From NCBI GenBank assembly GCA_963842525.1, contig CAWJGT010000023.1, positions 256,001-320,000 of the forward strand: DNA of 64,000 nt, read 5' to 3'. This DNA is from an uncultured Holophagales bacterium. Its GTDB lineage: Bacteria; Acidobacteriota; Thermoanaerobaculia; Multivoradales; UBA5704. Shown in pieces: positions 2,508-45,932 of this stretch (the stretch's first letter is position 1; each line of letters begins with the position of its first letter). The translations under genes and the position numbers were made by a program. The notes beneath the pieces are model-generated. The model searched no databases. It was given only the letters and a program-made list of their open reading frames with translations, and was not told the DNA's origin.

Positions 2508-2722
2508 GAGGGCGTCTGGAAAACTCTGCTGCGGGCGTCGCCTTGGCCCCTCCCCCCCGGCCCCTCTCCCATCCGCACTCACACCCGCCCGGGAGAGGGG
2601 AGCCCCCACCCAGGAGCTTCCTGATCATGCATTTCTCCCCTCTCCCGGGGGAAGGGAGTGCGGATGGGAGAGGGGCCGGGGGTGAGGGACCAGGGCTCGC
2701 GCAGGAATTTCCAGACACGCTC
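2508..2722. repeat. Family-A REP-like composite palindrome filling a convergent intergenic gap
   Basis: CCCCTCCCCCCCGGCCCCTCTCCC...GGGAGAGGGG arm and inverted GGGAGAGGGGCCGGGGGTGAGGG arm; outer IR GCGTCTGGAAA / TTTCCAGACAC. Confidence 0.85.
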
Positions 2723-8200: not shown

Positions 8201-8245
8201 CCGGGAAGACTCGGTAGACGCCTGTTCCGTTCGAACGAGGCGTAG
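5244..8245 (-). pseudogene. MmeI-like (Type IIL) N6-adenine DNA methyltransferase, N-terminal nuclease domain missing
   Basis: GAHYTP, VLDPACGTGNFL (motif I), IIGNPPY (motif IV) and a TRD; upstream remnant GTGVYRVFPDGHRKRFFLRDL ends at ~8245. Confidence 0.85.
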
Positions 8246-9316
8246 ACGGCGCCGGACTCTGGAACCCCGGCGGAGATCTCGGGCCTTCTCGCCTCGATTC
8301 GTGCTGAGCATGGGGTGCCCGCCCTGGTTGCCGCCGTGGGGCATGCGGACGGCTCCATCCAGACCGGCGCCGTCGGAGCCCGCGTCCTGGGAAGGCCCGA
8401 CAAGGTCACGCCGGACGATTGGTTCCATATCGGTTCGGTCACCAAGCCGATGACGGCCACCGTGGTCGCTCTGCTTGTCGAGGAAGGGAAGCTCCACTGG
8501 TCGACTCCGGTCATCCAGGCGCTGCCGGAGTGCGGCTCGACGATGCGGCCGGAGTACAGGGAGGTGACCGTGGCGGACCTGCTGGCTCATGAAGGGGGTC
8601 TGCCGGCGTTCGACGACGAGAAGGCTCTCCAAACGGTTCCCCGCCTGGCTGGCTCCCTGACCGCGCAGCGGCTCGCGTTCTCCTGCCTGGCGCTCTCCAG
8701 GCCGCCGGTGGTCGGGCCAAGGAAGGCGTTCTCGTACTCGAATGCGGGCTTTACCGTCGTCGCCGCGATCGCCGAGAAGGTTTCGGGGGTCTCTTGGGAG
8801 GAGCTGATGCGGACCCGCGTCTTCGCGCCGCTCGGCATGAGGACGGCGGGGTTCGGGTGGCCGGCGAAGGGCGGGGCGCCTCAACCCTGGGGTCACTGGA
8901 AGCGGCTGTGGAGAGTCGTGCCGCAGAATCCCGACGGCAAGTACCAGCTCCCCTCCTTCCTCGCGCCGGCGGGAGACGTCCACATGAGCATGCCGGATCT
9001 CGCCCGCTTCCTGGCTGCGCATCTGCGGGCCCTTCATGGCGATTCCGCATTGCTGAAGCCGGAGACCGCGCGCCTGATGCACACGCGGCGCATCCAGAGC
9101 GGGCTCGGTTGGGGGGTGCAGCCGCTGGCGGGCTTCGACGCGGTCAGTGTCTATCAGGGAAGCGCGGACACGTTCATCACCCTCGTCGCCATCGTGCACG
9201 ACGGCGATCTGGTGGTCGCCGTCTCGGCAAATTCAGCCACCCAGGAAGCCGACGCCGCGACCAAGCAGGCCTTCAAGCAGCTCCTGGCGCGGTATGCCAG
9301 GCAGCTCGGGAGCTGA
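8246..9316 (+). CDS. Serine hydrolase (beta-lactamase class C-like), 5' end apparently truncated
   Basis: FHIGSVTK (SxxK), YSNAG and APAGDV; frame open upstream (LLASIRAEHGVPAL) to a stop at 8243 with no signal peptide; GTG at 8315 is a possible start. Confidence 0.85.
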   Translation, partial: TAPDSGTPAEISGLLASIRAEHGVPALVAAVGHADGSIQTGAVGARVLGRPDKVTPDDWFHIGSVTKPMTATVVALLVEEGKLHWSTPVIQALPECGSTMRPEYREVTVADLLAHEGGLPAFDDEKALQTVPRLAGSLTAQRLAFSCLALSRPPVVGPRKAFSYSNAGFTVVAAIAEKVSGVSWEELMRTRVFAPLGMRTAGFGWPAKGGAPQPWGHWKRLWRVVPQNPDGKYQLPSFLAPAGDVHMSMPDLARFLAAHLRALHGDSALLKPETARLMHTRRIQSGLGWGVQPLAGFDAVSVYQGSADTFITLVAIVHDGDLVVAVSANSATQEADAATKQAFKQLLARYARQLGS

Positions 9317-9529: not shown

Positions 9530-10417
9530 ATGGCTCACCAGCACCATACGATCATCTTCGTCCCTCACGCCCACGCCCGGCTGCGCAAGTGGCGGGTGAC
9601 GAACCTCCAGATCGGCCTGGTTGCCGGCGCCCTCGCTCTCCTCACCCTCGCCTCCCTCTACTTCATCTGGTCGCACTTCCACACTCCGGTCAATCCGGTG
9701 GAGATCGCGCGCCTGAAGAAGGAGAACGAGTCGTTGCGGCAGGTGAACACGCAGTTCGAGACGAGCCTCCAGAAGCTCCAGGGTCAGCTCAACAGCTACG
9801 AGGAGCGCACCCGCGACCTCGCCCTCGTGGCCGGTATCGAGAGCCTCGGCGAAGGCGTGGAGGCCGGCATCGGCGGCGATGTGCCCGTCGAGGAAGCTGA
9901 AGAGGTCGGGATCGGGGACCTCCCCCAGATGGCGGCCCGGGCGGCCCAGCTCTCCGGGGCCCTCGACGCGGTCGAGACCCGGCTCGACGAGCGCAAGCAG
10001 TGGATCTCCTCCACTCCGACCATCGCTCCGGTCAAGGGGATCTTCACCAGCGGCTACGGCTCGCGCACCGATCCGTTGACCCATGGGCGCGGCAACCACC
10101 AGGGCGTCGACATCGCAGCGGCCCCCGGCCAGCCGGTGCAGGCGAGCGCCGACGCGATCGTGATCCGCACCGGCGTCCAGGGCGGGTATGGCAAGGCTGT
10201 CTTCCTCTCCCATGGCTACGGCATGACGACCCTCTACGGACACCTGTCGGCAATCACCGTCAAGCCGGGCCAGCGCGTCAAGCGCGGCGACATCGTCGGC
10301 CGGGTCGGCAACACCGGGCGCTCGACCGGCTATCACCTCCACTATGAGGTGCGCCTGGACGGCGACGCGGTGAACCCGGTGGGGTACATCCTGAACGACG
10401 CGGGCTCCGCGCAGTAG
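9530..10417 (+). CDS. M23 family metallopeptidase (TM, coiled coil, M23)
   Basis: HQGVD, GYG, YGHL and [10 protein letters not shown] motifs. Confidence 0.92.
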
Positions 10418-10431
10418 GGCCCGCCCCAGAT

Positions 10432-10490
10432 CCTCACCCCCTGTCCCCCTCTCCCATCGCCCTCCCACCGACCGGGAGAGGGGGGACGTA
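10432..10490. repeat. Family-A REP-like half element (intergenic)
   Basis: CCTCACCCCCTGTCCCCCTCTCCCATCGCCCTCCCACCGACCGGGAGAGGGGGGACGTA, nearly identical to the arm at 31877. Confidence 0.9.
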
Positions 10491-10598
10491 GGCGGTGCTC
10501 TGCGGGAGGGCCGGAGGAATCTTTCTGCTAGACTGCGGGTTGTACCCCGTCGCGGGGTAACACCCCACGCTTCTCCAATTCCTGACGAGATCTCCTCG

Positions 10599-13302
<2,704 letters not shown>

Positions 13303-13322
13303 GGTATCGCTCCGCCGCCCAA

Positions 13323-15052
<1,730 letters not shown>

Positions 15053-15087
15053 TAGAAGCCGGCGGGAATGGGCTATCCTGACCGGCC

Positions 15088-19791: not shown

Positions 19792-20315
19792 GCGATCTCA
19801 GCTATCCCATTGGCAAAGAGGACGTGAAGCACGAGCTCACCGACGCCGAGCGGCGGGAGGCGATCGAGGTGATTGCCGGCACGCCTGCCCGTTTCCGTTC
19901 CGCCGTCGAGGGCCTCACGGACGAGCAGCTCGACACCCCATACCGGCCCGGTGGCTGGACCGTGCGCCAGCTCGTCCACCACCTGCCGGACAGTCACGTC
20001 AACGCCTACATCCGTTTCAAATTCGCTCTCGCGGAGGACGAGCCGACGATCAAGCCCTACGACCAGGATGTCTGGGCAGCTCTGCCGGATTCACGGACCA
20101 CGCCGGTCGAGGTGTCGTTGACCCTCCTCGACTCCCTCCACCAGCGCTGGGTGGAGGTGCTGCGCGGGATGAAGCCGGAAGATTTCCGGCGCCGGCTGCA
20201 TCATCCCGAACGGGGCATCCTGACGCTCGACGCGATGCTCAATTCGTACGCCTGGCACAGCCGACATCACGTGGCGCACGTCACGGCGCTGCGGGCACGG
20301 ATGGGATGGGGGTAG
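19788..20315 (+). CDS. YfiT family (DinB-like) thiol transferase
   Basis: LDTPYRPGGWTVRQLVHHLPDSH, IKPYDQ, YAWHSRHH. Confidence 0.92.
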   Translation: MSDLSYPIGKEDVKHELTDAERREAIEVIAGTPARFRSAVEGLTDEQLDTPYRPGGWTVRQLVHHLPDSHVNAYIRFKFALAEDEPTIKPYDQDVWAALPDSRTTPVEVSLTLLDSLHQRWVEVLRGMKPEDFRRRLHHPERGILTLDAMLNSYAWHSRHHVAHVTALRARMGWG

Positions 20316-23300
20316 CAGTCCGCCCAATCGCCTGAAGGAGACGGTCCGCCAGCACCCGGACGTTCTCCGGGTCCTCGATCGCGGTCACATGGTTGCCCGG
20401 CACGGGCACGATGTCGATCTCTCTAGTCAGGGCTGCCCAGCCATGGGACAGATCGCTGTCAGTCCCGTCCGGTTGCTCCTCGGCAGCGAAGAAGGTGACG
20501 CGGCCTGGATAGGGGGCTGGATGATCGGTACGCGCCACCTCCAAGTGAGCCTTGAACCGGGCGAGAAGACGGCGCGCGTTGTCGGGGGACCAGTCCGGCG
20601 GCAGGTCGCCCCGGCGCTTCGCCTGCTCGACCAGGGCGGCGACCGGATCGGCGGCGCGCCGCAGCTCGTCGCGGTCGGCCGGAAAATCGCCCAGCGCTTC
20701 GATCAGGAGATCGGCATCGCTCGCTCCCGGCCGGCCGGGCGGCTCGACGAGGCCGGTGTCGATCATCCCCAGGAAAGCCACCTCTTCGCCTTCGGCTCGG
20801 AGCTGGCGGGCCATTTCAAAGACGACCCGGCCGCCGAAGGACCAGCCTGCCAGGAGGTAGGGTCCGGCGGGCTGGACGGTCCGCACATGCCGCAGGTACT
20901 CCGCGGCGAGGCCGGCCAGGCTGCGCGAGGTCTCGGCGGGTGCCACGTCCTGGAGCCCCCAGACCGGCTGATCCAGGCCGAGGGCGCGCGCCAGGTCGAA
21001 ATAGGAGAGGACCTGGCCGCCGGCCGGATGGACCAGGAAAAGCGGCGGACGCGCTCCTCCCTCCTGAATGCGCACGAGCGGTGACTCCTCTCCTTCCGTC
21101 GCCTCCCGGCGCAGGAGCCGAGCCAGGTCCTCGACCGTGGGCGCCTGGAAGAGCGTCGCGAGCGGGAGCGTGCGATCCAGATCCTGCGCGATGCGGGCCA
21201 TCAGGCGGACGGCGAGCAGGGAGTGGCCGCCCAGGTCGAAGAAGTTGTCCGTGACTCCGACCGGCGCGGTCTCCAGCACCTCCTCCCAGATGCAGGCGAG
21301 ACGCAGCTCGAGACCGTCCCGAGGTGGCACCCGGAGGGCGGCGCGCTCGACCGTCGGCAGCAGGTCCGGCAGGGCGCGGCGGTCGACCTTGCCGTTGGGG
21401 TTGAGAGGCAGCCGGTCGAGCGGCACGAAGACGGACGGGACCATGTAGGCGGGAAGGCGTTCCCGCAGCCGCTCGCGCAGCTCGTCCAGAGCCGGAGGCT
21501 GGGCCGAATCGAGCACCACGAAGGCCACCACCCGCTTTTCTCCGCTCGGAGCATCGCGCCCCACGACCACCGACTCGCGCACGCCGGGCAGCCGGCCCAG
21601 CTCGGCCTCGATCTCGCCGGGCTCGACGCGATAGCCGCGGATCTTGATCTGCTGGTCGGCGCGACCGGCCGCCGCCACCTCGCCGTCGGGCAGGTAGCGG
21701 CCGAGGTCGCCGGTCAGGTAGACCCGATCGGCCGGATACCCCGTGAATGGATTGGCCACGAACCGCCTCTCGGTCTGCTCGGGGTCGTCCAGATAACCGT
21801 GCGCGAGGTGCGGGCTGCGGATGGCGATCTCGCCGACCTCCCCGATCCCTGCCAGTCCGGCACCGCGTGAGAGGACGAGAAGCTGGACGTCGCGCTTGCC
21901 GCGGCCCAGAGGCAGGATCTGCCGCTCGCGCGCCTCGCCCTCGCCTTCGAGGCACCCCTCCTCCACCAGGTGATAGCTCAGGGCGCGCTGGGATTCCGTG
22001 GCGCCGTAGACGTTCACGCAGACCGCCTGCGGAGCGAGCCGCCGGACACGGGCGACATCGCGCCGGGTCAGGATGTCGCCGGCGAGGACGGCGCAGCGCA
22101 GATCGGGGAGAACCTCACCCTCTCCCTCCGTCAGGAGCTGCGCCATGGCCGGGGTGAGGTGAGTGACGGTGATCCGCTCGTGCCGCATCCAGTCCGCGAG
22201 ATAGCCCGGCTCGCCGATCCGGCCGGGGTCGGGGATGCAGAGGGTCGCGCCGATCGACAGGGAGTAGAAGACATCGCGCTGGAGCGGGTCATGAGCGAGC
22301 CCCGAGAGCAGGGTGAAGCGGTCGGACTGGTGATAGCCCAGGACGTCCTGGTGCCAGGGGATGAAATGCGACATGGACCCGTGCGTCTGGAGGATCCCTT
22401 TCGGGACCCCGGTTGATCCCGAGGTGAAGGCCACGGCGGCGATATCGTGCGGACCGATGTGGGAAGGAAAGGCCGGCCCTCGCCCTGGGTTTACACCCTG
22501 GGCTACCGAATGCCGCCCTCCGGGCTCTTGAGAGCCGAGGATTCCAGAGCCCGGAGGGCGGAACTGGGTAGCCCCGGGTGTCAACCCGGGGCGAGTGATG
22601 GCCAGCCGGAACACCCCCTCGCCAGCCACATACTCCTCCACCACCGCCGGCAACGGCCCGGCCGCCTCGACGTGCAGCACGGCGCGCGGTCGGGCGAGGC
22701 GAAGAATGTCCACGAGGCGGGCCGGCGGGTAGACAGGGTCCAGGATGCCGAAGGCCGCACCGGACCGCAGAATGCCCAGCAGAGCCTGGATCAGCCCCGA
22801 GCTGCGATGAGCATAGACGGCCACCCGGTCCCCCTTGCCGATCCCCTCGGATCGCAAAAGGTCGGCCAGGTGGTCCACCGCCCGATCGAGCTCGCCGTAC
22901 GTCCAATCACCACAGGGCTCGGTGAGGGCGATACGCTCCGGATGGCGCCGCGCCTGCTCTGTAAAGAGGTCGTGGACCGCTCCCACCCAGAGTGGATCGA
23001 GACGCGCCTGCGGATCGGGCAGCACGGTCCGCGCCTCGACAGTCAGCAGCGAGTAGGTGTCGATGGGCGCTTCGGGCCGCTCCGCGATCTGGGCGACCAG
23101 GCAGGCGTACTGGCGCAGCATCTCCTCCATGCGATTCCGGTCGAAGAGGTCCGTGTTGTAGACCAGGTTCAGGATCAGGCCGTCCCCCCGCTCCGCCAGG
23201 TAGAGGGTGAGGTCGAACTTGGCGAGCACGCCGCCGGGTTCGTAGGGCTCGATCTCCAGCCCCGGCAGGTCGAGCCGGGCGGCCGGCGCGTTGAGCATGT

Positions 23301-26300
23301 TGAAAAGGACCTGGAAGAGCGACGGCCGCGACAGGTCGCGCTCCGGGCGCAGCTCCTCTAGAAGCTTTTCGAAGGGGACGTCCTGGTGGGCATAGGCCCC
23401 GAGGGCGGTCTCGCGCACCCGGCGGACCAGCTCCGGGAACGCCGGACGGCCCGAGAGGTCGGCGCGCAGCACCAGGGTGTTGAGGAAGCAGCCGATCAGC
23501 CCTTCGACCTCGGGCTGGGTACGGCCTGCGATGGGCGACCCCACGGCGAGGTCCTCCTGTCCGCTCAGGCGAGACAGCAGGATCTGGAACGCGGCAAGCA
23601 GGACCATGAAGAGCGACGCGCCCTGCGTCTGACCGATCCTCCGGAGGCGATCGACGAGGGCCGGCGGCAGGAGCCGCAGCTCCGAGGCGCCGTGGAAGGT
23701 CTGGACCGGCGGACGCGGCCGGTCGGCTGGGAGATCCAGAACCGGCGGCAGGCCACGCAGGCGCTCGCGCCAGTAGCCCACCTGGGATTCGAGCGCCTCG
23801 CCCGCGAGCCAGCCCCGCTGCCAGCGGGCGAAGTCGGTGTACTGGACCGGCGGCTCGGGCAGGATCTCGCCGCGATAGAGCGCGGCGATCTCGTGCGCCC
23901 AGAGCCCCATGGACCAGCCGTCGCAGGCGATGTGGTGGGTGAGGAAGAGTGCAGCGCTCTCGTTCCCGCCCAGCCGCACGAACAGGGCTCGGACCAGGGG
24001 GCCGCGTTCGAGGTCGAACGGCCGCAGCGCCTCCTCCCCCATCACCCGTCGCGCCTCCTCTTCTCGGACAGTTTCAGGGAGAGCCGCGAGATCGACCGTC
24101 GCCAGAAGGCTCGCAGGCCCGGGCTCGACCACCTGGAGCGGCTGGCCATCCTGGACCGGGAACCGCGTGCGCAGCGTCTCGTGCCGCCGCACGATCTCGC
24201 AGAGCGCCCGGTCGAGGGCCGCCGCGTCCAGGCCGCCGTGCAGCCGGAAGGCCGTCGGCATGTTGTAGGCCGCGCCGTCGATCTCGAGCTGCTGCAGGAA
24301 CCAGATCCGCTCCTGGGAGAAGGAAAGCGGCGCCGGACCGGCTCCTGGATCGCGACGGATCGTTGGCACGACGGCCGCCGCCGGATGGCGCGCCTCCAGC
24401 CAGGCCGCCAGACCCGCCACGGTCGGTGCATCGAAGAGGGCCGTCACGTGCAGCGTCTCGCCAAGGCGCCGCCGCAGACGATTGATGAGCACGGCGCCCT
24501 TGATCGAATCGCCGCCGAGCGCGAAGAAGTTGTCGTCCACGCCGAAGGGGACCCCCAGGGCTTCGCGCCAGAGCTCCGCGATCAACTCTTCGAGCGGCGT
24601 CTGCGGAGCGGTCCTCTCCTCTGTGCCGGCTTCGATGCCGACGAACGGGTCGGGCAGGGCACTGCGGTCGATCTTGCCGCTGGCGGTAAGCGGCAGGGCT
24701 TCCAGCTCCACGAAGATGGTCGGGAAGCATGTAGTCGGGGAGGCGGTGGCGGAGGAAAGTGTGGACCTCACCCCCTAGCCCCCTCTCCCATCGCCCCCCC
24801 ACCGACCGGGAGAGGGGGAACGTAGTGCTTGCAGGTGTGGCGATAGCAGGCGGCAAGCCCTCCAGGTGTTCCCGCAAGGCCGATGCCTGGACCTCGCCGG
24901 AGAGCTGAGCATGCGTCCCCCCTCTCCCGGTGGAAGAGGGGGCGATGGGAGAGGGGGACAGGGGGTGAGGACCCGGCACCACATACGCCACCAGCGCCAG
25001 CCCCCCGCCTCCCTGCGGCCGGGCCACGACCACGCACTGCCGCACGGCAGGGATGCTCGGCCACGACAGCGGTCACCTCTCCGACCTCGATGCGGAAGCC
25101 GCGGATCTTGACCTGATGGTCGCGCCTGCCCAGGAACTCCAGCACGCCATCGGGCAGGAGGCGAGCGAGGTCGCCGGTGCGATAGAGGCGGGCACCGGCC
25201 TCGAACGGGTCCGGCACGAAAGCCTCGGCGGTCCGTGCCGGATCGCCGAGATAGCCGCGGCCCACTCCCGTTCCGCCGATAAAGAGCTCACCGGCTGCAC
25301 CAATCGGCAGCGGACGCAAGGCAGCATCGAGCACGTGCAGCCGGATGTTGGCAAGCGGCCGGCCGATCGGAGTGACCACCGCGGAAGGACCCGGCGGAGT
25401 ACGCTTCAGGTGCTGGCTCACCCGGTCGGTGCACTCGGTCGGGCCGTAGGCATCGACCAGCGGGATGTGGGGATAGATCGCGTGCCAGCCGCGGGCGAGA
25501 TCAGGCGGCAGCGCCTCGCCGGTGGCGATCAGCCAGCGCAGCGCCTCGAGCCGTGGGTACGAATCGACCGCATGAAGCATGGCACCCAGGAGCGACGGCA
25601 CGACCTCCAGGACCGTGATCCGTTCGCGATCGGCCTCCTCCAGCAGGGAGACGGGATCGCGCACGACCTCGGTCCGGACGATCTGCACGCGGCCTCCCAC
25701 GAGCAGGGCCGCCAGGGACTGCCAGATGGAGATATCGAAGATCTGGGGAGCGGTCTGGGCGACCACGTCCTTCCCGGTCAGATCGAGACTGGCGATCCTG
25801 GCCCGCAGGTGGTTGAGCAGGCCGCGGTGGGTCAGCATCGCGCCCTTAGGTACCCCGGTCGAGCCCGACGTGAAGATCACATAGGCCAGGTTGTCCGGCA
25901 GAGGGCGGACGGGCAAGGCGGCGAGAGCCTCGTCGTTGCCAGAAGCCAGGAGTTGGGCGAGATCAATGATCTCGGGAGTCGGATAGGTGGCGGAAAAAGC
26001 CCCCGCAGGGGGCGCAGGCATAAAGCCTGGGGTTTCAACCCCAGGAAGGGAGTCCCCCCGATTTTCCCCAAGCCCCGAAGGGGCGCAGGCAGCTTCTCCA
26101 CCCACTCGGGGTTGGAACCCCGCTCCCGATGCCTCCGCCCCTTCGGGGCTTGGAATCAATATGGGCTGCTGTCCTGGGGTTGAAACCCCAGGCTTTATGC
26201 CGACGCCCCGTTGGGGCTTCCCCACCCGATCCGCCGCTGAGTCGGGTGATGAAGAGACGATCACCCACCGCGCACCGCTCTGCTCCAGGATCTGCTCCCG

Positions 26301-29300
26301 CCGGCGCGGCGGGTGGGCAGGAGCGAGAGGCAGGTAGACGCTACCAGCCTCCAAGATCGCCAGCAGAGCGATCAGATATTCGGGGCTCCGCTCGCCGAGG
26401 ACGCCAACAACCATCTCGGGACCGACACCGCGGGCGATCAGCCGGCGGGCGGCACGTTTGACGCTCTCGCGCCAACTCGGCATAGGTGAGCGTCCGGCCC
26501 TCGCAGGCCACCGCGATTACTCCCGGCGTGAGCTCGGCCTGGCGCGCGAACAGCTCTGGGAAGCAGGCTTCCGACAGCTCGGTGGCCCGATCGTTCCATT
26601 CGATCAGCGCCTGATGGCGCTCGCCTTCCGTCAGCAACGGCAGGTCAGTCAGCGAGCACCCGGGATCAGCCAGGAGCCCGCGCAGCAGCACCTGGAGCTG
26701 GCCGATCAGGCGCTGGACGGTCGCGCCGTCGAACAGGGCCGTGTTGTAGCGCCACTCGCCGGAAAGGCCGTCCTCCCCCGCTTCGAAGTGGAGCACCATG
26801 TCGAATTTCGTGGTCCGGCTCTCGACCTCCGGGATTTCCAGGACCAGGCCGGGCAGGTCGATCCCGGCGGCCTGGTCGCCCGGCATCTCAAGGACCTGGA
26901 AGAGAACCTGGAAGAGCGGCGTATGGGAGAGAGAGCGCTCCGGCCGCAGCTCGGCGACGAGCTTCTCGAACGGCATGTCCTGATGGGCAAAGGCCGAGAG
27001 CGCTGTCTCGCGCACACGTCCGATCAGCTCCAGGCCGCCCATGTCGGCCGATATCGGGACGCGCAGCACCAGGGAGTTGACGAAGAAACCGATCAGTCCC
27101 TCGATCTCGCCGCGATTGCGGTTTGCGCTCGGCACCCCGACCACGATGTCGCCCCCGCCCGTGAGCCGGTGGAGCAACGCGTCGAACGCGGCGAGGAGGG
27201 TCATGAACAGCGTCGAGCCGGCGCGGCGGCCGAAGGCGTGCAGGGCGGCCGTCAGCTCGGCGTGCAGCACCACCGGTCGCGCATCGCCTTCGAAGGACTG
27301 GGCGGCCGGCCTTGGGCGGTCGAGAGGCAGGTCGAGCACCGCAGGGGCGCCGGCCAAGCGCTCGCGCCAGAAGCGGAGGTACTCCTCCAGGACCTCTCCC
27401 CGCAGCCACTCCCGCTGCCAGAGAGCGAAGTCCGCGTACTGGATCGGCAGCTCGGGCAGGGGCGCCAGCTCGCGCGATCCACCTTGCCGGTAGAAGGTGG
27501 CCAGCTCGCGGATCAGGATGCCCATGGACCAGCCGTCCGAGACCACGTGGTGCATGGTCAGAAGCGCCAGATGCTCGGTCCTTGAGAGCCGCAACAGGGC
27601 GGCGCGCAGCAACGGGCCATCGACCAGGTCGAACGGCCGCTCGGCCTCCTCGCAGGCCAGCCGGCCGGCTTCCGTCTCCCTGAGCCCGGCCGGCAGGACT
27701 TCCAGATCGACCTGCGGCAGCGTGCCGGACCGCGGCGGATCGATCACCTGGACGGGATGCCCTTCAACCGTCGGGAACCGGGTGCGCAGACTCTCGTGAC
27801 GGGCCACGACGGCGTCCAGTCTGCGCCCGAGCGCCGCCGCATCGAGGGTCCCGGTCAGCCGGACCACCATCGGCATGTTGTAGGTCGAGGTCCCGGGCTG
27901 GAGCTGTTCCAGGAACCAGAGCCGCTCCTGGGCGAAGGAGAGCGGCAGGTCCGCCGAGTCGTCCCCATCGCGCGGCACGATCGGCGGTGCCTGCCGGGCC
28001 GGATCGGCGCGCAGGAGGCCGCCGATCCGCAGGGCCAGACCGGCGATCGTCGGCGCTTCGAAGAGCCAGCGCAGTGGGATCTCGACGCCGAATACCGAGC
28101 GCACCCGCGAGACCGCCTGGATGGCGAGCAGCGAATGCCCGCCGAGCGCGAAAAAGTCGCTCTCGATCCCCGGGCGCTCGATGCCGAGCACATCGGTCCA
28201 GACCGCCGCGAGCATCTCCTCCACCGGATCGCGCGGCGCCGTGGTCCCCTCCTCCACCCCCTCCGATTCCAGATCCAGCCGCGCCAGAACACCGCGGTCC
28301 GGCTTGCCGTTCGGCGTGAGCGGCATGCTCGGAAGGACCAGGATCGCCGCGGGCAGCATGTACTCGGGGAGGCGCGCCGCGAGCCAGTCCCGTACCCGGG
28401 CGGCCACCCCCTCCCCCGACCCCTCCCCCGCGCGTCCACCATCCCCCACCCCGAGCGGGAGAGGGGCGCCACCACCCAGCCCGCTCTCCTTCCCCCTCTC
28501 CCGTTCGGGGAGGGAGGTCGGGGGACGCACGGGAGAGGGGGCCAGGGGGTGAGGGCTCGGCACCACGTAGGCCACGAGGCCGCGCCCGCCCGGCAGACCC
28601 TCCCGCACACCGACGACCGCCTCCCGGAGGCCCGGACAGCCGGAGAGCGCCGCCTCCACCTCGCCGGGCTCGATGCGGAACCCGCGGACCTTCACCTGGC
28701 GGTCGATCCTTCCCACGAAGCGGAGGTTGCCGTCGGGCAGCCAGAGGACCCGGTCGCCGGTGCGGTAGAGCCGCGCCCCGGGCTCGCCCTGGAGAGTGCC
28801 CGACGGATCAGGCACGAAGCGCTCGGCCGTCACGTCCGGCCGGCCGAGATAGCCGCGCGCCAGGCCGTCGCCGCCGGTCAAGAGCTCCCCAGGGACACCC
28901 GGCGGCACCGGCTGGAACGCCTCGTCCAGGACCTGAACGGTCGTGCCGGGGATCGGCTGGCCGATCGGCACCGGGCTCCCGGGCGGGATCGGCTCGCGGA
29001 TCGTGAACATGGTCGTGTGCGTGGTGTTCTCGGTCGGGCCGTAGCCGTTGATCAGCGTGCACCCCGGCATCTCGGCCAGCATCCGGTTGACCGCTTCGGG
29101 CGCAAGGACATCGCCGCCGGGCAGGGCCTCCGCGAGGTCGCGCAGGATTTCGATCCCGTGCGTCACGATCTGATGGAAAAGCCCCGTGGTCGGCCAGAGG
29201 ATGGTTACGGCGTGCCGCTCCAGCAGCCCGCGCAGCTCCCCCAGAGAGAGGGCTTCGCCCGGTCCCAGGACCAGCCGGCCGCCGTTCAGCAGCATCCCCC

Positions 29301-32300
29301 AGATCTCCGCCGTGGAGCCGTCGAAGGTGATCGGCGAAATCTGGAGCATGGTCGCGTCCGGCGGGAACCGGCCAAGAGTCAGCCGCACGATGCCGCGGTG
29401 CTCGATCGCAACGGCCTTGGGCACGCCGGTCGAGCCGGAGGTGAACATGACGTAGGCGAGGCCCTCACCCCCCTGGCCCCCCTCTCCCAACCGCACTCCC
29501 ACCTCCCGGGAGAGGGGGGAAAAAGCAGGAGAGATCTCGGAGTTGGAGAGAGCCACATCTCCCCTCTCCCGGAGGTTCGGGAGTGCGGATGGGAGAGGGG
29601 CCGGGGGTGAGGGGTCTGGGCCGACCGTGCGCGCTCCTGGGATCTCGAGGCTCTGCGCGCCCTCCGTCACGATGAGCCCGACCCCTGCCTGCGCCACCAT
29701 CTGCGCCAGCCGCTCCTGCGGATCGCCGAGGTCGAGCGGGACGTACGCACCTCCCGCCTCGAGGAGCGCCAGGAACAGGACGATCCGCTCGATCGAGGGT
29801 CCGAGAGCGATGCCCACCGGAGACTCAGGTCCTACGCCCTGGGCACGCAGCCAGTGGGCCACCTGGTTGGCCCGGACGTTCAGCGCGCCGTAGCTCAGGC
29901 AGGCGTCGCCGTCGACCAGGGCGATCCGGTCCGGCTCTTCCACGGCCTGGCGCTCGAAAAGACGGTGGACAGGGATTTCGGTATCCGGGACCGACCCGCC
30001 GTCTCCCCACGCGCCGAGTTGACGCAGCTCGGTCTCGGACAGCAGAGAGGCCTCCTCGTGGAGCACGTCCGGCGCGGAAACCATGGCGGCAAGCGCGCGA
30101 ACGTAGGTGCCGGCCATGGCCTCGGCCTGGCGGGAATCGACCTCCGATTCCTGATAGCTCAGCCGCAAGTCGAGCCGAGTGCCCGACGGATCGAGCTGAA
30201 AGCTCGGACCCAGCGGAAAGTCGGTCTCCTCGTAGCCGTACCAGTCGAGCAGCTCGACGCCCGGGGCCTCCTGAACCGCCTGGTAGACGTGGAAGTGGAC
30301 GAAGTTGAAGACCGTGTCGAAGAGCGGTCCGCCGTCGCGCTCCGCCTGCAACTCGGCCAGCGGAAAGCGCCGGTGCGGCAGCATCTCCCTTTCCGTCTCG
30401 AAGGTCGCGCGGACCAGGCCGGCCCAGCTCTCGGCGCCCAGATGTGCCCGGAACGGCAGGGTGTTGAGGAAGAGCCCCAGTGCCCGGTCGCTCCCCTCGG
30501 TCTCGGGCCGGCCGTTGGCGACCAACCCGGTGATCACCTCGCGGCGGCCCGTCCACCGGGAGAGCACCTTGAGATGGGCCGCGAGCAGGACGCTCTTCAA
30601 GGGGACGCCGACCGCGCGGGAAACTGCCCGCAGACCGTCGAGGGTCTCGCCGGGGATGGCCACGACCACATCGCGCGCCCTGCCGGCGAGCTTCCCTTCC
30701 ACGGGCCAGCGCGGCAGCCGGCTCGGCTCGGCCCCGGCAAGCCGTTCCCGCCAGAAGCCGCGGGTCTCGGACGATGCGAGGGCCATCTGTTCCAGCCGCA
30801 CGAAGTCGCGGAACGCGGCGGGCGGCGGCTCCTCGTTTACGGGCTTCTCGGAGACATAGCCGCGGAACAGCTCGGCGAGGAGCGACGCCGCGCTCCAGCC
30901 GTCGAGCACCGAGTGATGGAAGCTCAGGGTCAGTTGAAAGACGTCCTCGTCCAGCCGGTGGACGTGGAAGCGCACCAGCGGCGGCCGGCTCCAGGAGAAG
31001 CCGCGGTGCCGCTCCGACTCCAGCCAGGCCGCCACGACTTCCGCCCGCTCGCCCTCCGGCAGGCCCCGCAAGTCCTCCAGCTCGAACGGCGCCTCGACCT
31101 CTCCATGGACGAGCTGGATCGGCTCGTCGAACGAATTCAGATCGAACGAGGTCCGCAGCACCGGGTGGCGGGCCAGGGCGCTCTCGACCGCGAGACGCAG
31201 CCGTGCGGCATCGAAGGGAGCGCGCAGGCGGGCGCTGAAGACGTCGTGGTAGACCGCTGTCTCCGGGCTGTACTCGGTGTGGAAGAGCATGCCGGCCTGG
31301 AGGCGGGCTAGGGGGTAGGCGTCGATGATGGAGACCTCACCCCCTGTCCCCCTCTCCCATCTCCCACCCTCCCATCCCCGGGAGAGGGGGGACGTAGTTG
31401 TTGCCTGTGTGGCGAGCTCGCGGAACGGCTCCGAATGCGTTCCCCCTCTCCCGGCGGGGGATGGAAGGGAGATGGGAGAGGGGGCCAGGGGGTGAGGACT
31501 CCCGCCCACCTCCCGCGCCAGCTCCCGCAGCACCGGATGATGAAAGAGCTGCTGAAGGCTCAGCTCGATCCCACGTTCGCGCGCCAGGGCCAGCACCCGC
31601 AGGCTCAGGATCGAGTCGCCGCCCAGGGCGAAGAAGCTGTCCCGCGCCCCCACCCGCTCGACGCCCAGGACTTCCTCCCAGACCTCGGCGAGCGTCTCCT
31701 CCACCAGCGTAGCCGGCGGCTCGAAGCCCTCCGTGGCCACCACCTCGGGCCGGACCTCCAGCCGCGCGAGAGCCCGCCGGTCCAGCTTGCCGTTGGGTGT
31801 GAGCGGCAGCGCGTCGACCTCCACGAAGGCGGCCGGAATCATGTGGTCGGGGAGACGGATGCGGAGGAAAGCCAGAACCTCACCCCCTGTCCCCCTCTCC
31901 CATCGCCCCCCCACCGACCGGGAGAGGGGGGACGTAGTGCTGGCTGGTGTGGCAATAGCGGGCGTCAAGTCCTCGGGGCGTTCCGCGGGAACAACATCCT
32001 GCGTCCCCATATGCTCCCGTGAGGCCGATGCTTGGATCTCGCCGGAGAGCTCCGGACGCGTCCCCCCTCTCCCGGTCGGGGGGAGGGTGATGGGAGAGGG
32101 GGACAGGGGGTGAGGCACCACATACGCCACCAGCATCCGTCCCTCTCCGCCCACCCGCTCCCGTGCCAGAACCGCGGCCTCGGCCACGGCCGGATGCGCC
32201 GCAAGGGCCGCTTCGATCTCCCCCGGCTCGATACGGAAGCCGCGGATCTTGAGCTGGTCGTCGCTTCGCCCAAGGTACTGGAGGTCCCCGCCGGGAAGCC

Positions 32301-35144
32301 GCCGGGCGAGGTCGCCCGAACGGTAGAGCCGCGCCCCGGGCTCGGAGGCATCGGGGACGAAGCGCTCGGCCGTCAGCTCCGGACGGCCGAGATAGCCGCG
32401 CGCCAGGCCGCGCCCACCCACGCAGATCTCGCCGGGCACGAGGTCCGGCACCGGCCGGCCGTGGCCGTCGAGGAGCGAGATCCGGAGGTCCGGGATCGGC
32501 TCTCCGATCATGCTGCCGGGCGCATTCGCGAGGTCGGCCTGCACGATCCGCCGGAAGGTCACATGCACGGTCGTCTCGGTGATGCCGTACATGTTGGCCA
32601 GCCGGGGCCGCTCGCCGCCATGCCGCTCGATCCAGGGCGCCAGGACCGGCAGCTCCAACGCCTCGCCGCCGAAGATCACCCACCGCAGGGACGGCCCCAC
32701 GGGGACTGCGCCAGCATGGTCCCGCTCCCACTGCACAAGTTGGCGGAAGGCCGACGGGGTCTGGTTGAGGACGGTCACCCGCTCCTCCGCCAGCAGGCGG
32801 GCCAAGGCCTCGGGCGAGCGGCTCACCCAGAACGGCACCACCACGAGCCGGCCGCCCCACGCCAGGGCGCCCCAGATCTCCCACACCGAGAAGTCGAACG
32901 CAAAGGAGTGGAAGAGCGTCCAGACGTCCTGGGACGAGAAGCCGAACCGGGGCTGGCAGGCGGCGAGCAGGCGGGCCACCTCGGCGTGACGGACCACGAC
33001 ACCCTTGGGCCGCCCCGTCGAGCCGGAGGTGTAGATCACATACGCGGCGTTGTCCTCCTCTGCACCACCCGCGAGGCGTTCGGGGTTTTCCAGGTCCTGC
33101 AGGTCATCGAGTCGCACGAGGGCCAGGCGGTCCGCCCCGGGCAGGCGCCCGGCAAGCTCATCCCGGGTAACTACGACACGGACGCCCGAATCCTCCACAA
33201 GGAACGCCAGCCGCTCGGTCGGAAGGTCCGGATCAAGTGGGACATAGGCGCCGCCGGCCTTGAGGATGCCGAGGATGCCGAGCGGGGTCTCGGGCGAGCG
33301 CTGGAGGCAGAGCCCGACCCGGATCTCCGGGCCGACGCCGAGGCGCCGGAGCCGGCGGGCCAGCCGGTTCGAGCAGCGCGTCGAGCTCGCCATAGGTCGT
33401 CCCGCGTCCCTCGAACAAGACGGCGACCGCTCGAGGGTCCCGGTCCGCAGCGGCTTCGAAGAGGCGGTGCAGAGCCCTCTCCCCCTGACCCCCTCTCCCG
33501 TGCGGCCCCCATTCCTCCACCCCGAACGGGAGAGGGGGAACGCTGTGGTGATCCTCGGAAGAAACAACTGACGGTTGGGTGGCGGCGCCCCTCTCCCGCT
33601 CGGGATGGGGGGTGGTGGACGCGCGGGGGAGGGGTCGGGGGAGGGGGCTCACAACGGCCCTGATCTCCTCCTCCGTCAGCATCGGCAGCTCGGAAAGCCG
33701 GCGCTCCGGATCGGCCGCCATCCCGGCGAGGAGCGCCTGAAAATGGCCGGCGATGCGGGCGGCGGCCGGGGCATCGAAAAGGTCGGTGCTGTACTCGAAA
33801 TAGCCCTCGAGGTCGTCGCCCGCCTCGGTGACCGACAGCATCAGGTCGTAGCGCGCCGTCCGCGCCTCGGTATCCAACGCGGCAAGCTCGACGCCGGGCA
33901 GGTGGAACGCGACGGGTGGCGTGTTCTGGAAGGACAGGACCACCTGGACGAGCGGCGGGCGCAGCGGATCGCGGTCAATCCGCAGCTCCTCGATCAGCTT
34001 TTCGAAAGGGAGGTCCTGGTGTGCCTGGGCGCCGACGGTCGCCTCGCGGGTGCGCGCCAGGAGGGTGCGGACCGAGGGGTCGCCGGACAGATCCGCCCGC
34101 AGGACCAGGGTATTCACGAAGAGCCCGATCAGTCCTTCGAAGCTCCGCCCGGTTGCGCCCGGCCACCGGCGAGCCCACGAGCAGGTCGGTCGCGCCGGAG
34201 TAGCGGTGCAGCAGGATATCGAGCCCGGCGAGAAGGATCATGAAGAGCGTCGCTCCCTCGCCGCGGGCCAGCGCCCGCAGCTCTGCCGGGAGATCTCCCG
34301 CCAGAGTGAAGAGCTGGTCCGCACCGCCGGAGCCGCGGACGGCCGGCCAGGGACGGGTGACCGGCAGCTCGACGACCGGCGGCGCCCCGTCGAGAGCCTG
34401 CCTCCAGTAGCCAAGCTGCGCCTCCAGCCGCTCGCCTTCGAGCCACTCCCGCTGCCAGACGGCGAAGTCGGGCACCTGGACCGGCAGCTCCGGCAGCGGC
34501 GAGGGCCTCTCCAGCAGGCGCGCTTCGTAGAGGGCCGCGAAATCGCGCACGAACACGGCGATCGACCAGCCGTCGGACACGATGTGATGCATCGTCACCA
34601 GCGCGACGTGCTCCTCCGGCCCGCAGCGCAGCAGGGCGGCCCGCACCAGCCGGTCCCGGGAGAGGTCGAACGGCAGCAGCCCCTCCTCCTCGACGATGCG
34701 CTCCACCTCGGCCGAACGGACCTCCGCGGGCAGGCCAGCCAGGTCGACGATCGGCGCCGGCAGCGGCTCCGGCGGGCGGACGACCTGGACCGGCCGCCCC
34801 CCCACGACATCGAAGCCGGTCCGCAGGCTCTCCTGCCGCCGCACCAGCTCGTCGAAGGCCCAGCGCAGCGCCGGAATGTCGAGGCGTCCCTGGAAACGGG
34901 TGGCCGACGAGATGTTCCATGCCGGGTTGCGCGGCTGCCACTGGTCCATGAACCAGAGCCGCTGCTGGGCGAAGGAGAGCGGCAGCTCACGGTCGCGCGG
35001 CACCGGCCGCAGCTCGAGCTCGTCCGGCTCGCGTTCGGCCGCCTTCCGCCGCAAGCGAAGCATGAGCAACGCCCGCTGCTCCGGCGTGAGGCCGGCCAGG
35101 CTATCGTTCAAAGCGGTCGAATCGATGACTTCGGGGCTGCTCAT
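20281..35144 (-). CDS. Four-module NRPS C-A-T-C-A-T-C-A-T-C-A-T-TE (probably one gene broken by frameshifts)
   Basis: C motifs HHIVSDG, HHSVLDG, HHVVSDG, HHIACDG; four TSGSTG A3 motifs; T motifs GGDSI, GGHSL, GGDSI, GGHSL; TE GWSFGG; spread over overlapping ORFs 33975-35144, 33233-34117, 26341-33567, 24768-26483, 24074-25045 and 20281-24771. Confidence 0.93.
22481..22593. repeat. Family-B palindromic element in frame in NRPS A4 (loop before motif A3)
   Basis: CCCTGGGTTTACACCCTGGGCTAC...GTAGCCCCGGGTGTCAACCCGGG; encodes RPGLTPGATQFRPPGS...PGGRHSVAQGVNPGR. Confidence 0.85.
24765..24970. repeat. Family-A composite in frame in the NRPS A3 C-terminal subdomain
   Basis: Encodes PHPLSPSP...GGRWERGLGGEV between LVAYVV and LRHRLPDYM. 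Confidence 0.9.
25997..26219. repeat. Family-B composite palindrome in frame in NRPS A3 (loop before motif A3)
   Basis: GGCATAAAGCCTGGGGTTTCAACCCCAGGA and its inverse TCCTGGGGTTGAAACCCCAGGCTTTATGCC; AAGCCCCGAAGGGGCG and its inverse. Confidence 0.92.
28407..28555. repeat. Family-A composite in frame in the NRPS A2 C-terminal subdomain
   Basis: Encodes PHPLAPSP...RAGEGSGEG between LVAYVVP and RLPEYMLP; one arm matches intergenic 45807-45877. Confidence 0.9.
29462..29614. repeat. Family-A composite in frame in NRPS A2, directly before LAYVMFTSGSTG
   Basis: Encodes PSPPAPLPSALP...GEGGQGGEG; one arm matches intergenic 2631-2688. Confidence 0.9.
31334..31497. repeat. Family-A composite in frame in the NRPS T1-C2 linker
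   Basis: Encodes PHPLAPSP...WERGTGGEV; near-copy of intergenic 14819-14979. Confidence 0.92.
31877..32115. repeat. Family-A composite in frame in the NRPS A1 C-terminal subdomain
   Basis: About 80 aa PHPLSPSP...WERGTGGEV between LVAYVV and LRIRLPDHMIP. Confidence 0.92.
33475..33647. repeat. Family-A composite in frame in the NRPS C1-A1 linker
   Basis: Encodes [20 protein letters not shown]...GRGGQGE before LHRLFE; inverted relative to 28407-28555. Confidence 0.88.
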
Positions 35145-35359
35145 GGCCAGAGGGAATGACCGGAGGGAAGCCGGTCAGAGGAAGAACGTAGACGGTCTCA
35201 CAGATCTCTCATGGATTCAACCGGGGCCTCCGCGGCTCGCCGCGCTTTCTCTACGGAGTGACCTAAAAGGCATGGATTGGAGCGGCTCCTTGCCGCTTTT
35301 CACCCTACGATCCGACACTGACGCCGGAGGGGCTGCGAGCGGTTTTTGCCGTCGCACCT

Positions 35360-36079
35360 CTACCCTGACGAGCTTCCCTCTGCCTCGGGAGAAAACAGCG
35401 ACAGCACCGGCAGCCCCAGCCGCTGGCGCACGATCTGGAACCGCAGCCGCTCGCGCGAGCGCTCCAGCTCCTCGGCAGGCAGCCGGGCGCGCAGTCCGGC
35501 GAGGGTCTTCTCCACCGCCGCCTCCACCTCGGCCCAGCCGGCCTCATCCAGCGCGGCTCCGGCTCTGGCGAGCATCTCGGTGTCCAGATCGGACAACCCT
35601 TCCTCCACCGTCGGGGGATCTCCCGCCAGCATTGTGATCCGGGAAGCGATCTCTTCGCGGCCCGGGAGGCTCTGCGGTAGCGCCGCAGCGAGGGCGTGCA
35701 GGCGACCAGGGATGTGGAACGGCGGCGCCTTCGCACGCTCGCCAGGGGCGGTCAGCTCGCGCAGCTCCGCCCAGGCGGCCTCGACGGCAGGGGCGCAGTA
35801 GCGAAGGCTCGAAAGCCTGCCTCTGGCGCCACGCTCCTTCCCACGCTCCTTCCACTTGGCGAAGGCATCCTCCAGGACACGCTCGATCAGGTCCAGAGGA
35901 ATGCCCGCCTCATACCAGCGGAAAGCGACGTGGTAGTCAGCCGGAGGGAGCAGCGTGGCGGAATTCCGGAGCCTGAGGAAGATGTCCTCGATGGCCAGGA
36001 AGTATGCGTGGCCACCAAGATCGTCTTGAACCTCCATCATGGTGTCCGGAGGTGTTTTCCCCTCAGGGGGTGAGGTCAT
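35360..36079 (-). CDS. Hypothetical protein
   Basis: ATGA-coupled to coaX; YFLAIEDIF...WYEAGIPL...SLRYCAPAV. Confidence 0.75.
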   Translation of the reverse strand: MTSPPEGKTPPDTMMEVQDDLGGHAYFLAIEDIFLRLRNSATLLPPADYHVAFRWYEAGIPLDLIERVLEDAFAKWKERGKERGARGRLSSLRYCAPAVEAAWAELRELTAPGERAKAPPFHIPGRLHALAAALPQSLPGREEIASRITMLAGDPPTVEEGLSDLDTEMLARAGAALDEAGWAEVEAAVEKTLAGLRARLPAEELERSRERLRFQIVRQRLGLPVLSLFSPEAEGSSSG

Positions 36080-40413: not shown

Positions 40414-40478
40414 GTCTGCCTCGTCGTCTGTCTCGTCGTTGTCTCGCCGCAAGGGAAATCCCTCGCCTCTCGTATTTC

Positions 40479-40537
40479 TTCCCCCTCTCCCGGGGGGTCG
40501 CGAGGGCGGATGGGAGAGGGGGTCAGGGGGTGAGGGG
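40479..40537. repeat. Family-A half element (intergenic)
   Basis: CCCCCTCTCCCGG...GGATGGGAGAGGGGGTCAGGGGGTGAGGGG. Confidence 0.85.
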
Positions 40538-45806: not shown

Positions 45807-45877
45807 CCCCTCCCCCGACCCCTCCCCCGCGCGGCCACCACACGCCCACCCCAAGCGGGAGAGGGGCGCCACCACCC
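45807..45877. repeat. Family-A half element (intergenic), same subtype as 28407 and 33575
   Basis: CCCTCCCCCGACCCCTCCCCCGCGCGGCCACC...GCGGGAGAGGGGCGCCACCACCC. Confidence 0.88.
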
Positions 45878-45932
45878 GGCCCTCTGACTGGATGGAAAGG
45901 TGGCGGGTCAGATGCGGAGTTGGCTCGCCACC

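Follow-up and report, generated by a model that had tools for sequence, protein, structure and literature searches.

A 64,000-nucleotide stretch of a genome from the Thermoanaerobaculia-like (Acidobacteriota) lineage, referred to below as the window (C23:256001-320000 of genome G000), encodes a four-module nonribosomal peptide synthetase (NRPS) in which eight palindromic DNA repeats were detected. The genome comprises 9.95 Mb in 34 contigs, with a G+C content of 67 to 69%, and its assembly resembles a metagenome-assembled genome (MAG), with 96% completeness and 3.4% contamination. Its ValRS was nearest to those of Thermoanaerobaculia MAGs, at 80, 77, and 69% identity. The NRPS is located on the minus strand, from 35174 to 20281, and was delimited from lists of open reading frames (ORFs) and from Pfam matches to Condensation, AMP-binding, AMP-binding_C, PP-binding, and Thioesterase. 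These matches gave a domain order of C-A-T-C-A-T-C-A-T-C-A-T-TE for the condensation (C), adenylation (A), thiolation (T), and thioesterase (TE) domains, and the region is collinear with a 4,620-amino-acid ORF in a congener, G002. No intein or extra domain was detected in the NRPS, the only Pfam matches being C, A, A_C, PP, and TE.

An inverted-repeat scan of the window detected a long imperfect palindrome at each of the eight sites, and the elements (e1 to e8, all given here on the minus strand) were found where the initial annotation had placed them. Six are composite palindromes of one repeat family, family A. Element e1 (33478-33652) occupies the C-A linker of module 1, with the flanks LTEEEIRAVV...ALHRLFEAA in frame, and e2 (31333-31499) occupies the T-C linker between modules 1 and 2. 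Element e3 (31877-32116) is 240 nucleotides (nt) long, has 57-nt arms that were 95% complementary in the same scan, and lies between LVAYVV and LPDHMIP, in the loop between motifs A8 and A9 (A8-A9) of module 1. The A8-A9 loop is also the site of e5 (28405-28556) in module 2 and of a long composite, e7 (24765-24973), in module 3, where LVAYVVP...LPDYML is in frame. Element e4 (29469-29611) is located directly upstream of motif A3 (LAYVMFTSGSTG) in module 2. The other two elements belong to family B and are also located upstream of A3: e6 (25990-26222), a composite of Acido-Lenti-1-type hairpins in module 3, and e8 (22470-22605) in module 4, a pair that resembles the hairpin-forming doublets (REPINs) of repetitive extragenic palindromic (REP) sequences. 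All four kinds of site that had been named at the outset were recovered, namely, the C-A linker (e1), the T-C linker (e2), the pre-A3 position (e4, e6, and e8), and the A8-A9 loop (e3, e5, and e7). RNA folding of e4, e5, and e8 gave near-continuous hairpins with energies of -101 to -110 kcal/mol and z scores of -4.2 to -10.4, and none of 200 shuffles was as stable (0/200); the fold of e4 had an energy of -101 kcal/mol (z, -6.8), and that of e8 was one long hairpin of -103.5 kcal/mol (z, -10.4). The presence of eight elements in 14.9 kb compares with an expectation of 1.14 from the genome-wide density of repeat loci (Poisson P = 2.5e-5), and the probability that all eight are in frame by chance is (1/3)^8, or 1.5e-4, a value in which stop codons are not yet considered.

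The NRPS is broken in the present assembly into at least six minus-strand frames (33975-35174, 33233-34237, 26341-33648, 24768-26516, 24074-25072, and 20281-24774). Three-frame translations read together with the nucleotides indicated that these breaks are produced by five 1-nt insertions or deletions (indels), located on the minus strand near 34150, 33375, 26465, 25050, and 24725 (within 24690..34250). All five frameshifts lie outside the elements, and CCC runs are present at two of them. A stop-free frame of 2,435 codons (26341-33648) contains e3, e2, e4, and e5, in agreement with the original description of four elements within one uninterrupted ORF. Elements e1, e6, e7, and e8 are in frame with their immediate flanks, and all eight elements are thus locally in frame. 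The claim that the elements lie in the NRPS reading frames was therefore upheld for each element, but the NRPS as a whole is not a single ORF.

The frameshifts raised the question of whether the repeats had merely accumulated in an NRPS pseudogene undergoing decay or in an artefact of assembly, an explanation that fits with five frameshifts in 15 kb and with the MAG-like quality of the assembly. The preservation of frame across all eight elements speaks against it, as does the state of other genes in the window. SecA (10395-13739) is represented by its only full-length copy, which is read in alternating frames with at least six frame changes, and IMPDH (guaB, 13480-15055) is likewise split, into at least three frames. 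The genome contains this one full SecA and a distant partial SecA-like locus on contig C21, the latter aligning in three different frames. An organism cannot lack SecA. Because SecA and IMPDH are broken in the same manner and SecA is indispensable, the NRPS breaks most probably reflect indel errors of the assembly and not gene decay. Furthermore, ORFs of 5,669, 5,379, and 4,469 codons elsewhere in this genome contain in-frame copies of the repeats, and the same junctions were found in other assemblies of relatives (see below). A public DNA-type sequencing run (X1) contained 8% of the sampled words of the locus, and X1 contigs of 151 to 198 nt matched parts of the locus exactly, including the inside of e6 and positions 26267-26464, though this run may derive from the source sample. 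The piece at 26267-26464 ends one base before a frameshift site, and among the X1 pieces listed, none extends across one of the five frameshifts or across a complete element junction. Overall, an origin of the pattern in decay or artefact appears extremely unlikely, and the inserts do not seem to be confined to pseudogenes, as the frameshifts look like assembly errors of a kind common to SecA and IMPDH. Single-base indel errors appear to occur in clusters in this assembly, and caution is therefore required with any ORF-based statement on the genome.

The nature of the repeats was examined for each family. Family A (e1, e2, e3, e4, e5, and e7) has the core CCCCTCTCCC...GGGAGAGGGG and ends in terminal inverted repeats, (GGNC)CCTCACCCC...GGGGTGAGG(GNCC). 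Its copies range from 23 to 244 nt overall, with modes at ~60 nt, corresponding to a single unit, and at ~145 to 165 nt, corresponding to an inverted doublet. This family has the anatomy of a REP or REPIN, being a high-copy palindrome that is mostly extragenic and forms inverted doublets, and it also has the terminal inverted repeats without coding capacity (70 to 300 bp) by which transposable elements of the miniature inverted-repeat kind (MITEs) are recognized. Family B (e6 and e8) is built from a different hairpin and is likewise of the REP/REPIN type, that is, a short imperfect high-copy palindrome often found in inverted pairs. The division into two unrelated families made in the initial annotation held, with the corrections that family A comprises several subfamilies and is better described as a superfamily and that both family B elements are pairs of Acido-Lenti-1-type hairpins.

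Family B was matched to an Rfam family, Acido-Lenti-1 (RF01687). The e6 arm at 26173-26218 scored 38.8 bits against a gathering threshold of 37, while sub-gathering scores were obtained for the other e6 arm (25998-26045; 31.8 bits) and for the two arms of e8 (33.1 and 32.5 bits); the RF01687-type hairpins of the window extend over 22483-22591 and 25998-26218. The other Rfam matches in 20000-36000 were to sub-threshold microRNA models that merely fit long hairpins, and these were rejected. In the whole genome, at least 98 matches above gathering were found among 150 candidates scored, out of 2,775, and many of these occur as nearby +/- pairs. Three of the eight strongest Y1_Tnp matches were genes with RF01687/family B hairpins on both sides within ~270 nt (C14:204236-204577, C3:199401-199745, and C32:133626-133973); the spans comprising gene and hairpins are C14:203963-204885, C3:199294-199941, and C32:133447-134160. 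The subfamily of e8 is the same as that which flanks the Y1_Tnp gene on C14. This arrangement is that described for REP-associated tyrosine transposase (RAYT) genes and their REPs in the available part of PMC3733652. On the basis of sequence, family B is identified as the Rfam Acido-Lenti-1 hairpin, a putative REP associated with RAYT-like Y1 transposase genes. The available part of Weinberg et al. (2010; PMC2864571) lists RF01687 as a likely noncoding RNA of unknown function, whereas here the hairpin behaves as a dispersed DNA repeat, the copies of which form inverted pairs, lie on either side of Y1 transposase genes, and are present in frame in proteins. As a by-product of this analysis, Acido-Lenti-1 would gain a concrete identity, as a REP of Y1 transposases, at a time when a 2026 preprint still calls its function unknown.

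The distribution of the repeats was determined by blastn with the eight elements (six of family A and two of family B) over the 9.95 Mb, and 665 family A loci and 94 family B loci were detected. Coding calls were made with a codon log-odds score trained on 1,419 long ORFs, using the best frame of the 240-nt flanks of each locus. A stop-free reading in the frame shared by the coding flanks on both sides was obtained for only 92/665 family A loci and 10/94 family B loci, compared with 1,312 of 3,000 random positions that passed the same coding-flank test. These proportions indicated that the repeats are mainly extragenic, at ~243 per Mb of noncoding DNA. The in-frame call is conservative, with e1, e6, and e7 being missed owing to nearby frameshifts. 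Five further family A copies are present in the window, at 14818..14979, 2549..2691, 10431-10509, 40475-40536, and 45807-45882, and all are extragenic, in keeping with the early remark that no other coding sequence of the window carries such an insert. The copy at 14818..14979 starts at the TGA stop of guaB. This stop (window 14800-14830) overlaps the family A terminal inverted repeat (..CCC TGA CCTCACCCC..), a situation that resembles the REP ends which supply stop codons in other bacteria.

A strong bias toward NRPS genes was detected among the in-frame copies. The 102 copies sit in 78 stop-to-stop ORFs, 51 of which are longer than 1,000 codons. Searches by phmmer with the window's own domains found C, A, or T domains in 43 of the 78 host ORFs, and 66 of the 102 copies belong to those 43 NRPS ORFs. 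NRPS-like sequence amounts to 168 stop-to-stop ORFs and 1.16 Mb of the 7.25 Mb called coding, or ~12% of the genome. The density of in-frame copies was therefore 57/Mb in NRPS versus 5.9/Mb in other coding DNA, a difference of ~10-fold (binomial P = 2e-28), so the inserts are not equally frequent in all long genes; a comparison of this kind had been proposed in the initial annotation. At least 205 A3-motif sites were counted in G000, which is an exceptionally NRPS-rich Thermoanaerobaculia-like genome. The other 35 hosts include a KS-AT polyketide synthase, DnaE, a UvrD-type helicase, LigD, a class A penicillin-binding protein, CHAT-TPR proteins, an AcrB-type pump, and ABC transporters. In DnaE, a 60-nt family A unit (locus L028, C9:96832-96891) is in frame in the PHP domain region, within an open frame of 1,180 codons, and the PHP match covers 198 residues versus a profile of 164. 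At C9:302102-303322 (locus L053), a 169-nt family A element lies in frame and stop-free between the C-terminal part of HisF and HisI/HisE; either two his genes may be joined by this element, or a stop may have been lost through an assembly error.

The positions of the inserts within NRPS modules were established with a motif-based map and by projecting the flanks on either side onto the G002 orthologue, which is free of inserts and on which 62/66 NRPS inserts could be placed, and the two approaches agreed. Thirty inserts were located 4 to 41 residues before the YTSGSTG part of A3, nine between the T domain and motif C2, six between A8 and A9, four at 13 to 29 residues after C3, four between A3 and A5 (three of them 34 to 43 residues before A5, which corresponds to A4-A5), three between A5 and A7, and six elsewhere in the NRPS. 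The pre-A3 clustering had a binomial P value of 2e-27 for 31/62 inserts in a 41-residue slot of a 1,060-residue module; this value was computed with 31 inserts, one of which was later placed 307 residues from A3, giving the count of 30. The pre-A3 site hosts both families, several family A subfamilies, and both stop-free phases, and the phase that reads the TGA in the terminal GGTGAGG was found in 0/65 in-frame copies. Thus, the inserts are not random with respect to frame and structure but are in frame and clustered at a few loops. The encoded peptides consist of 19% Gly, 18% Pro, 9% Arg, and 9% Ser.

For 55/59 NRPS inserts tested, neither 500-nt flank had a paralogue with at least 90% identity, which by this comparison indicates that most NRPS inserts are probably not recent duplicates. 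One pair (C18:39545 and C19:531787) has flanks that are 100% identical and may represent a single event or a duplicated contig, and three more C18/C19 pairs have inserts in common, with flanks 85 to 89% identical. Contig C18 and the region at 487 to 533 kb of C19 hold paralogous or duplicate NRPS clusters that are 85 to 100% identical and have repeats at corresponding sites. These clusters could have arisen by recent duplication, could belong to a variant strain, or could be redundant contigs (with contamination estimated at 3.4%).

The structural context of two inserts was examined on a solved NRPS structure, LgrA. The A-T region of module 2 aligned to LgrA in three blocks, with gaps exactly at e4 and e5, so these elements coincide with the alignment breaks; e4 falls between LgrA residues 319 and 343 and e5 between residues 633 and 641. 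An AlphaFold2 model of this region was obtained from a 13-sequence alignment of the modules of the window and relatives. The predicted local distance difference test (pLDDT) score was 85 to 97 in most 10-residue blocks of the A-T fold, with a whole-model mean of 78, and 30 to 39 in model residues 128-171 (e4) and 485-523 (e5), where no secondary structure was present. The model thus predicts disorder for the insert peptides, with confidence retained in the A-T fold. According to the available parts of two papers (PMC8097286 and PMC11355689), auxiliary domains interrupt A domains mostly at A8-A9 and also at A2-A3 or A4-A5, and the insert sites described here include the A2-A3, A4-A5, and A8-A9 positions of these natural interrupted A domains.

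An orthologue comparison was utilized to establish whether the elements are insertions. In G002, the collinear orthologue is a single intact ORF of 4,620 codons with 70 to 79% DNA identity, and no family A or B match was found in it. Protein alignments around each site indicated that all eight inserts (8/8) are absent from this orthologue while the flanks align; the alignment of orthologous modules suggested in the initial annotation therefore had a uniform outcome. Orthologue fragments in congeners G001 and G005 were without e1 to e4 and e8 wherever those sites were covered. The position of e5 is occupied in the G001 orthologue by another family A subfamily, which is read in a different phase within an open frame of at least 2,233 codons. 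Because both the subfamily and the phase differ, the loop at the e5 site has been struck independently, as seen in a separate assembly. The nucleotide alignments to the empty G002 sites are too divergent for target-site duplications to be readable.

Absence from an intact orthologue and a mostly extragenic location elsewhere support the first of two explanations offered at the outset, that the elements are REP/REPIN-like selfish repeats which selection has filtered to permissive loops of the NRPS. The ~10-fold-higher density in NRPS, the clustering at a few loops, and the predicted disorder also fit with this explanation, which we consider likely to be correct. The second was co-option, in which the elements would serve as translational pause hairpins at domain or subdomain borders or as homology handles around the A3-A8 specificity core. 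Hairpins of about -100 kcal/mol and the recurrence of the pattern across a bacterial family are compatible with such roles, and the main sites bracket the A3-to-A9 unit, which is the unit most often exchanged in nature according to the available part of PMC8097286. However, all eight elements are missing from the intact orthologue and hence are dispensable, and the same repeats are mainly extragenic. The proposal of recombination handles was examined by comparing the best non-self blastn identities of the 500-nt left and right flanks, a test that has power for recent events only. One-sided close paralogy was detected at 2/59 elements versus 17/300 random NRPS positions, so no excess was observed, and the cores between e4 and e5 and between e6 and e7 had no close relative in the genome. 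Co-option thus received no support from the one test run, on flank paralogy, and is in our view very improbable. A related proposal, that the near-identical in-frame repeats before A3 and at A8-A9 of many modules are portable homology handles which bracket the specificity-determining A core and speed subdomain swapping and NRPS diversification in this NRPS-rich lineage, is also very unlikely, as is the equally conceivable one that interrupted A domains originate from such repeats.

The spread of the insertion pattern was investigated in relatives. Family A was present in 5/5 congeners and in 12/18 genomes searched of the same bacterial family. A search of 31 genomes was then performed for the family A core joined to degenerate A3 codons within 8 to 90 nt. 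This arm-plus-A3 pattern was found 17 times in G000; 20, 15, 7, 3, and 2 times in the congeners G001, G003, G005, G004, and G002, respectively; and 7, 1, and 1 times in G010, G008, and G018, which represent two other genera of the family. No match was obtained in the other 22 of the 31 genomes searched, and a reversed control pattern gave 0 matches in all 31. The genomes of these relatives were assembled separately, many into hundreds of contigs, and an artefact of one assembly therefore does not explain the junctions.

Several points weigh against the interpretation of selfish repeats filtered by selection. No cognate transposase was detected for family A: none of nine Y1_Tnp genes had a family A core within 700 nt (0/9), and none of the nine Y1_Tnp loci had a family A blastn locus within 1,500 nt, in an assembly that is 96% complete and from which the gene is possibly missing. 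Lengths between terminal anchors, expressed as remainders of 1/0/2 on division by three, were distributed as 26/16/5 for 47 in-frame copies and as 51/43/34 for 128 other copies; the in-frame anchor lengths are therefore not all multiples of three, the anchors not being true insertion ends. The coding calls stem from a home-made codon usage score applied to an indel-bearing assembly, which makes the counts approximate, and some non-NRPS hosts may represent read-through of two neighboring genes, for example, hisF-hisIE. No RNA run containing the locus was found among the public runs listed. The five NRPS frameshifts could be real after all. Finally, the element ends are very uniform, lying 0 to 12 codons before the LAY of A3, and with junctions this uniform, target choice, or gene conversion between conserved A2 and A3 nucleotide motifs, might account for part of the pre-A3 peak.

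This last point is the basis for an explanation by mutational bias, in which the elements would target a DNA feature beside the conserved A3 (and A8/A9) motifs or would be copied from module to module by gene conversion, with the highly conserved A2/A3 and A8/A9/A10 nucleotide motifs as homology arms. In dozens of modules from nine genomes, CTCGCCTAC (encoding LAY) begins no more than a few bases after GGGGTGAGG. The A3-motif sites, of which each genome has at least 205, offer abundant homology for conversion, and the inserts at corresponding positions of the paralogous C18/C19 clusters, with their flanks of 85 to 89% identity, are also as this explanation would predict. On the other hand, the same loop is occupied by two unrelated families and by several family A subfamilies in different phases, and different subfamilies were found at orthologous sites. 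Genic and extragenic copies resemble each other in the four bases beside the anchors, with no NRPS-specific target visible; a close paralogous flank is lacking for 55/59 inserts; and in-frame copies occur in non-NRPS proteins too. Mutational bias is therefore regarded as unlikely.

The filtering of selfish repeats by selection remains the favored interpretation. Under this scenario, two kinds of nonautonomous hairpin-forming repeats would have multiplied in this lineage and would insert widely, mostly between genes. Copies in coding DNA would persist only if the frame was kept and was free of stops and if the insertion fell in a surface loop or interdomain linker able to tolerate 20 to 80 disordered residues rich in Pro, Gly, Arg, and Ser. 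The candidate tolerant loops are those just before A3, at A4-A5, at A8-A9, in the T-C region, in the C-A linker, and after C3. NRPS genes are probably under weaker constraint, and they would collect most of the in-frame copies because they form a huge target (~12% of the genome) in which the same tolerant loops are repeated in every module. We infer that the inserts are probably translated, that the NRPS enzymes bearing them are probably still active, and that selection rather than target choice shapes the pattern of sites.

Comparisons were made with known systems. Rickettsia palindromic elements (RPEs) were reportedly described by Ogata and colleagues in 2000 as in-frame insertions in ORFs whose protein products are probably still functional, which agrees with the precedent for in-frame repeats invoked in the initial annotation. 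Like RPEs, the present repeats are in-frame palindromes in open ORFs, encode peptides in tolerated places, and have copies between genes, although the likeness is one of behavior only, the lineage being unrelated and the sequence probably unrelated as well. Unlike the situation with RPEs, one enzyme class dominates the hosts (66/102 copies in NRPS), and the same loops are hit repeatedly over ~200 paralogous domains, which provides a statistical site map. Interrupted A domains, reportedly covered by Labby and colleagues in 2015, similarly contain extra polypeptide inside the A domain at A2-A3, A4-A5, or A8-A9. They carry folded catalytic domains (M, KR, or Ox), whereas the inserts here are of 20 to 80 amino acids, have no Pfam domain, and are predicted to be disordered. 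MITEs are said to have been found in mcyD of Anabaena by Fewer and colleagues in 2011.

Short palindromes inside NRPS or polyketide synthase (PKS) genes of an active cluster have also been described in Planktothrix, where the available part of PMC4766695 reports seven REP-like GC-rich repeats of 43 to 45 bp within mcyA and mcyD of one cluster. Those repeats are discussed there as insertion sequence targets or as inactivating insertions, in contrast to the genome-wide in-frame colonization of defined loops observed here. Intragenic GTAG/CGTC REPs are known in several phyla, with singles and dimers that encode 20 to 82 amino acids and with hosts that include DnaE, UvrD-type helicases, and DNA ligase, as given in the available part of Di Nocera et al. 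(2013; PMC3733652). DnaE, UvrD, and LigD are hosts in this genome too, and REP-flanked RAYT genes are common to that system and family B; no NRPS bias is reported in the part of PMC3733652 available. Copies of REPs or MITEs lying in frame within defined loops of an NRPS were not described in the open-access literature searched, nor were NRPS dominance among hosts, recurrent use of equivalent loops, or coincidence with interrupted-A-domain sites, the host table of PMC3733652 lying outside this coverage. The statement in the initial annotation that no description existed for NRPS genes must be softened accordingly, as the mcyA/mcyD repeats and intragenic REPs are in print in the parts of these sources available. 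The present case is best read as what would be a megasynthase-focused variant of the known phenomenon of RPEs and intragenic REPs.

With about two thirds of the in-frame copies in one enzyme class and at the same few loops, the repeats amount to a natural insertion tolerance screen of NRPS modules. The hot spots (pre-A3, A4-A5, A8-A9, T-C, and after C3) overlap the sites of auxiliary domains and those used by engineers for domain insertion, and tags, linkers, or split points could be designed with the help of those that are less expected. Annotation is affected too, as the inserts disrupt both the calling of domains by homology and the prediction of specificity in clusters recovered from metagenomes. 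In addition, very long mRNAs acquire internal hairpins of about -100 kcal/mol.

Elsewhere in the window, a gene for an MmeI-family type IIL restriction-modification enzyme was detected at 5247-8405 (MmeI_hel, MmeI_Mtase, and MmeI_TRD). The local G+C content of this region is lower, at 59 to 61%, and the gene was possibly acquired horizontally.

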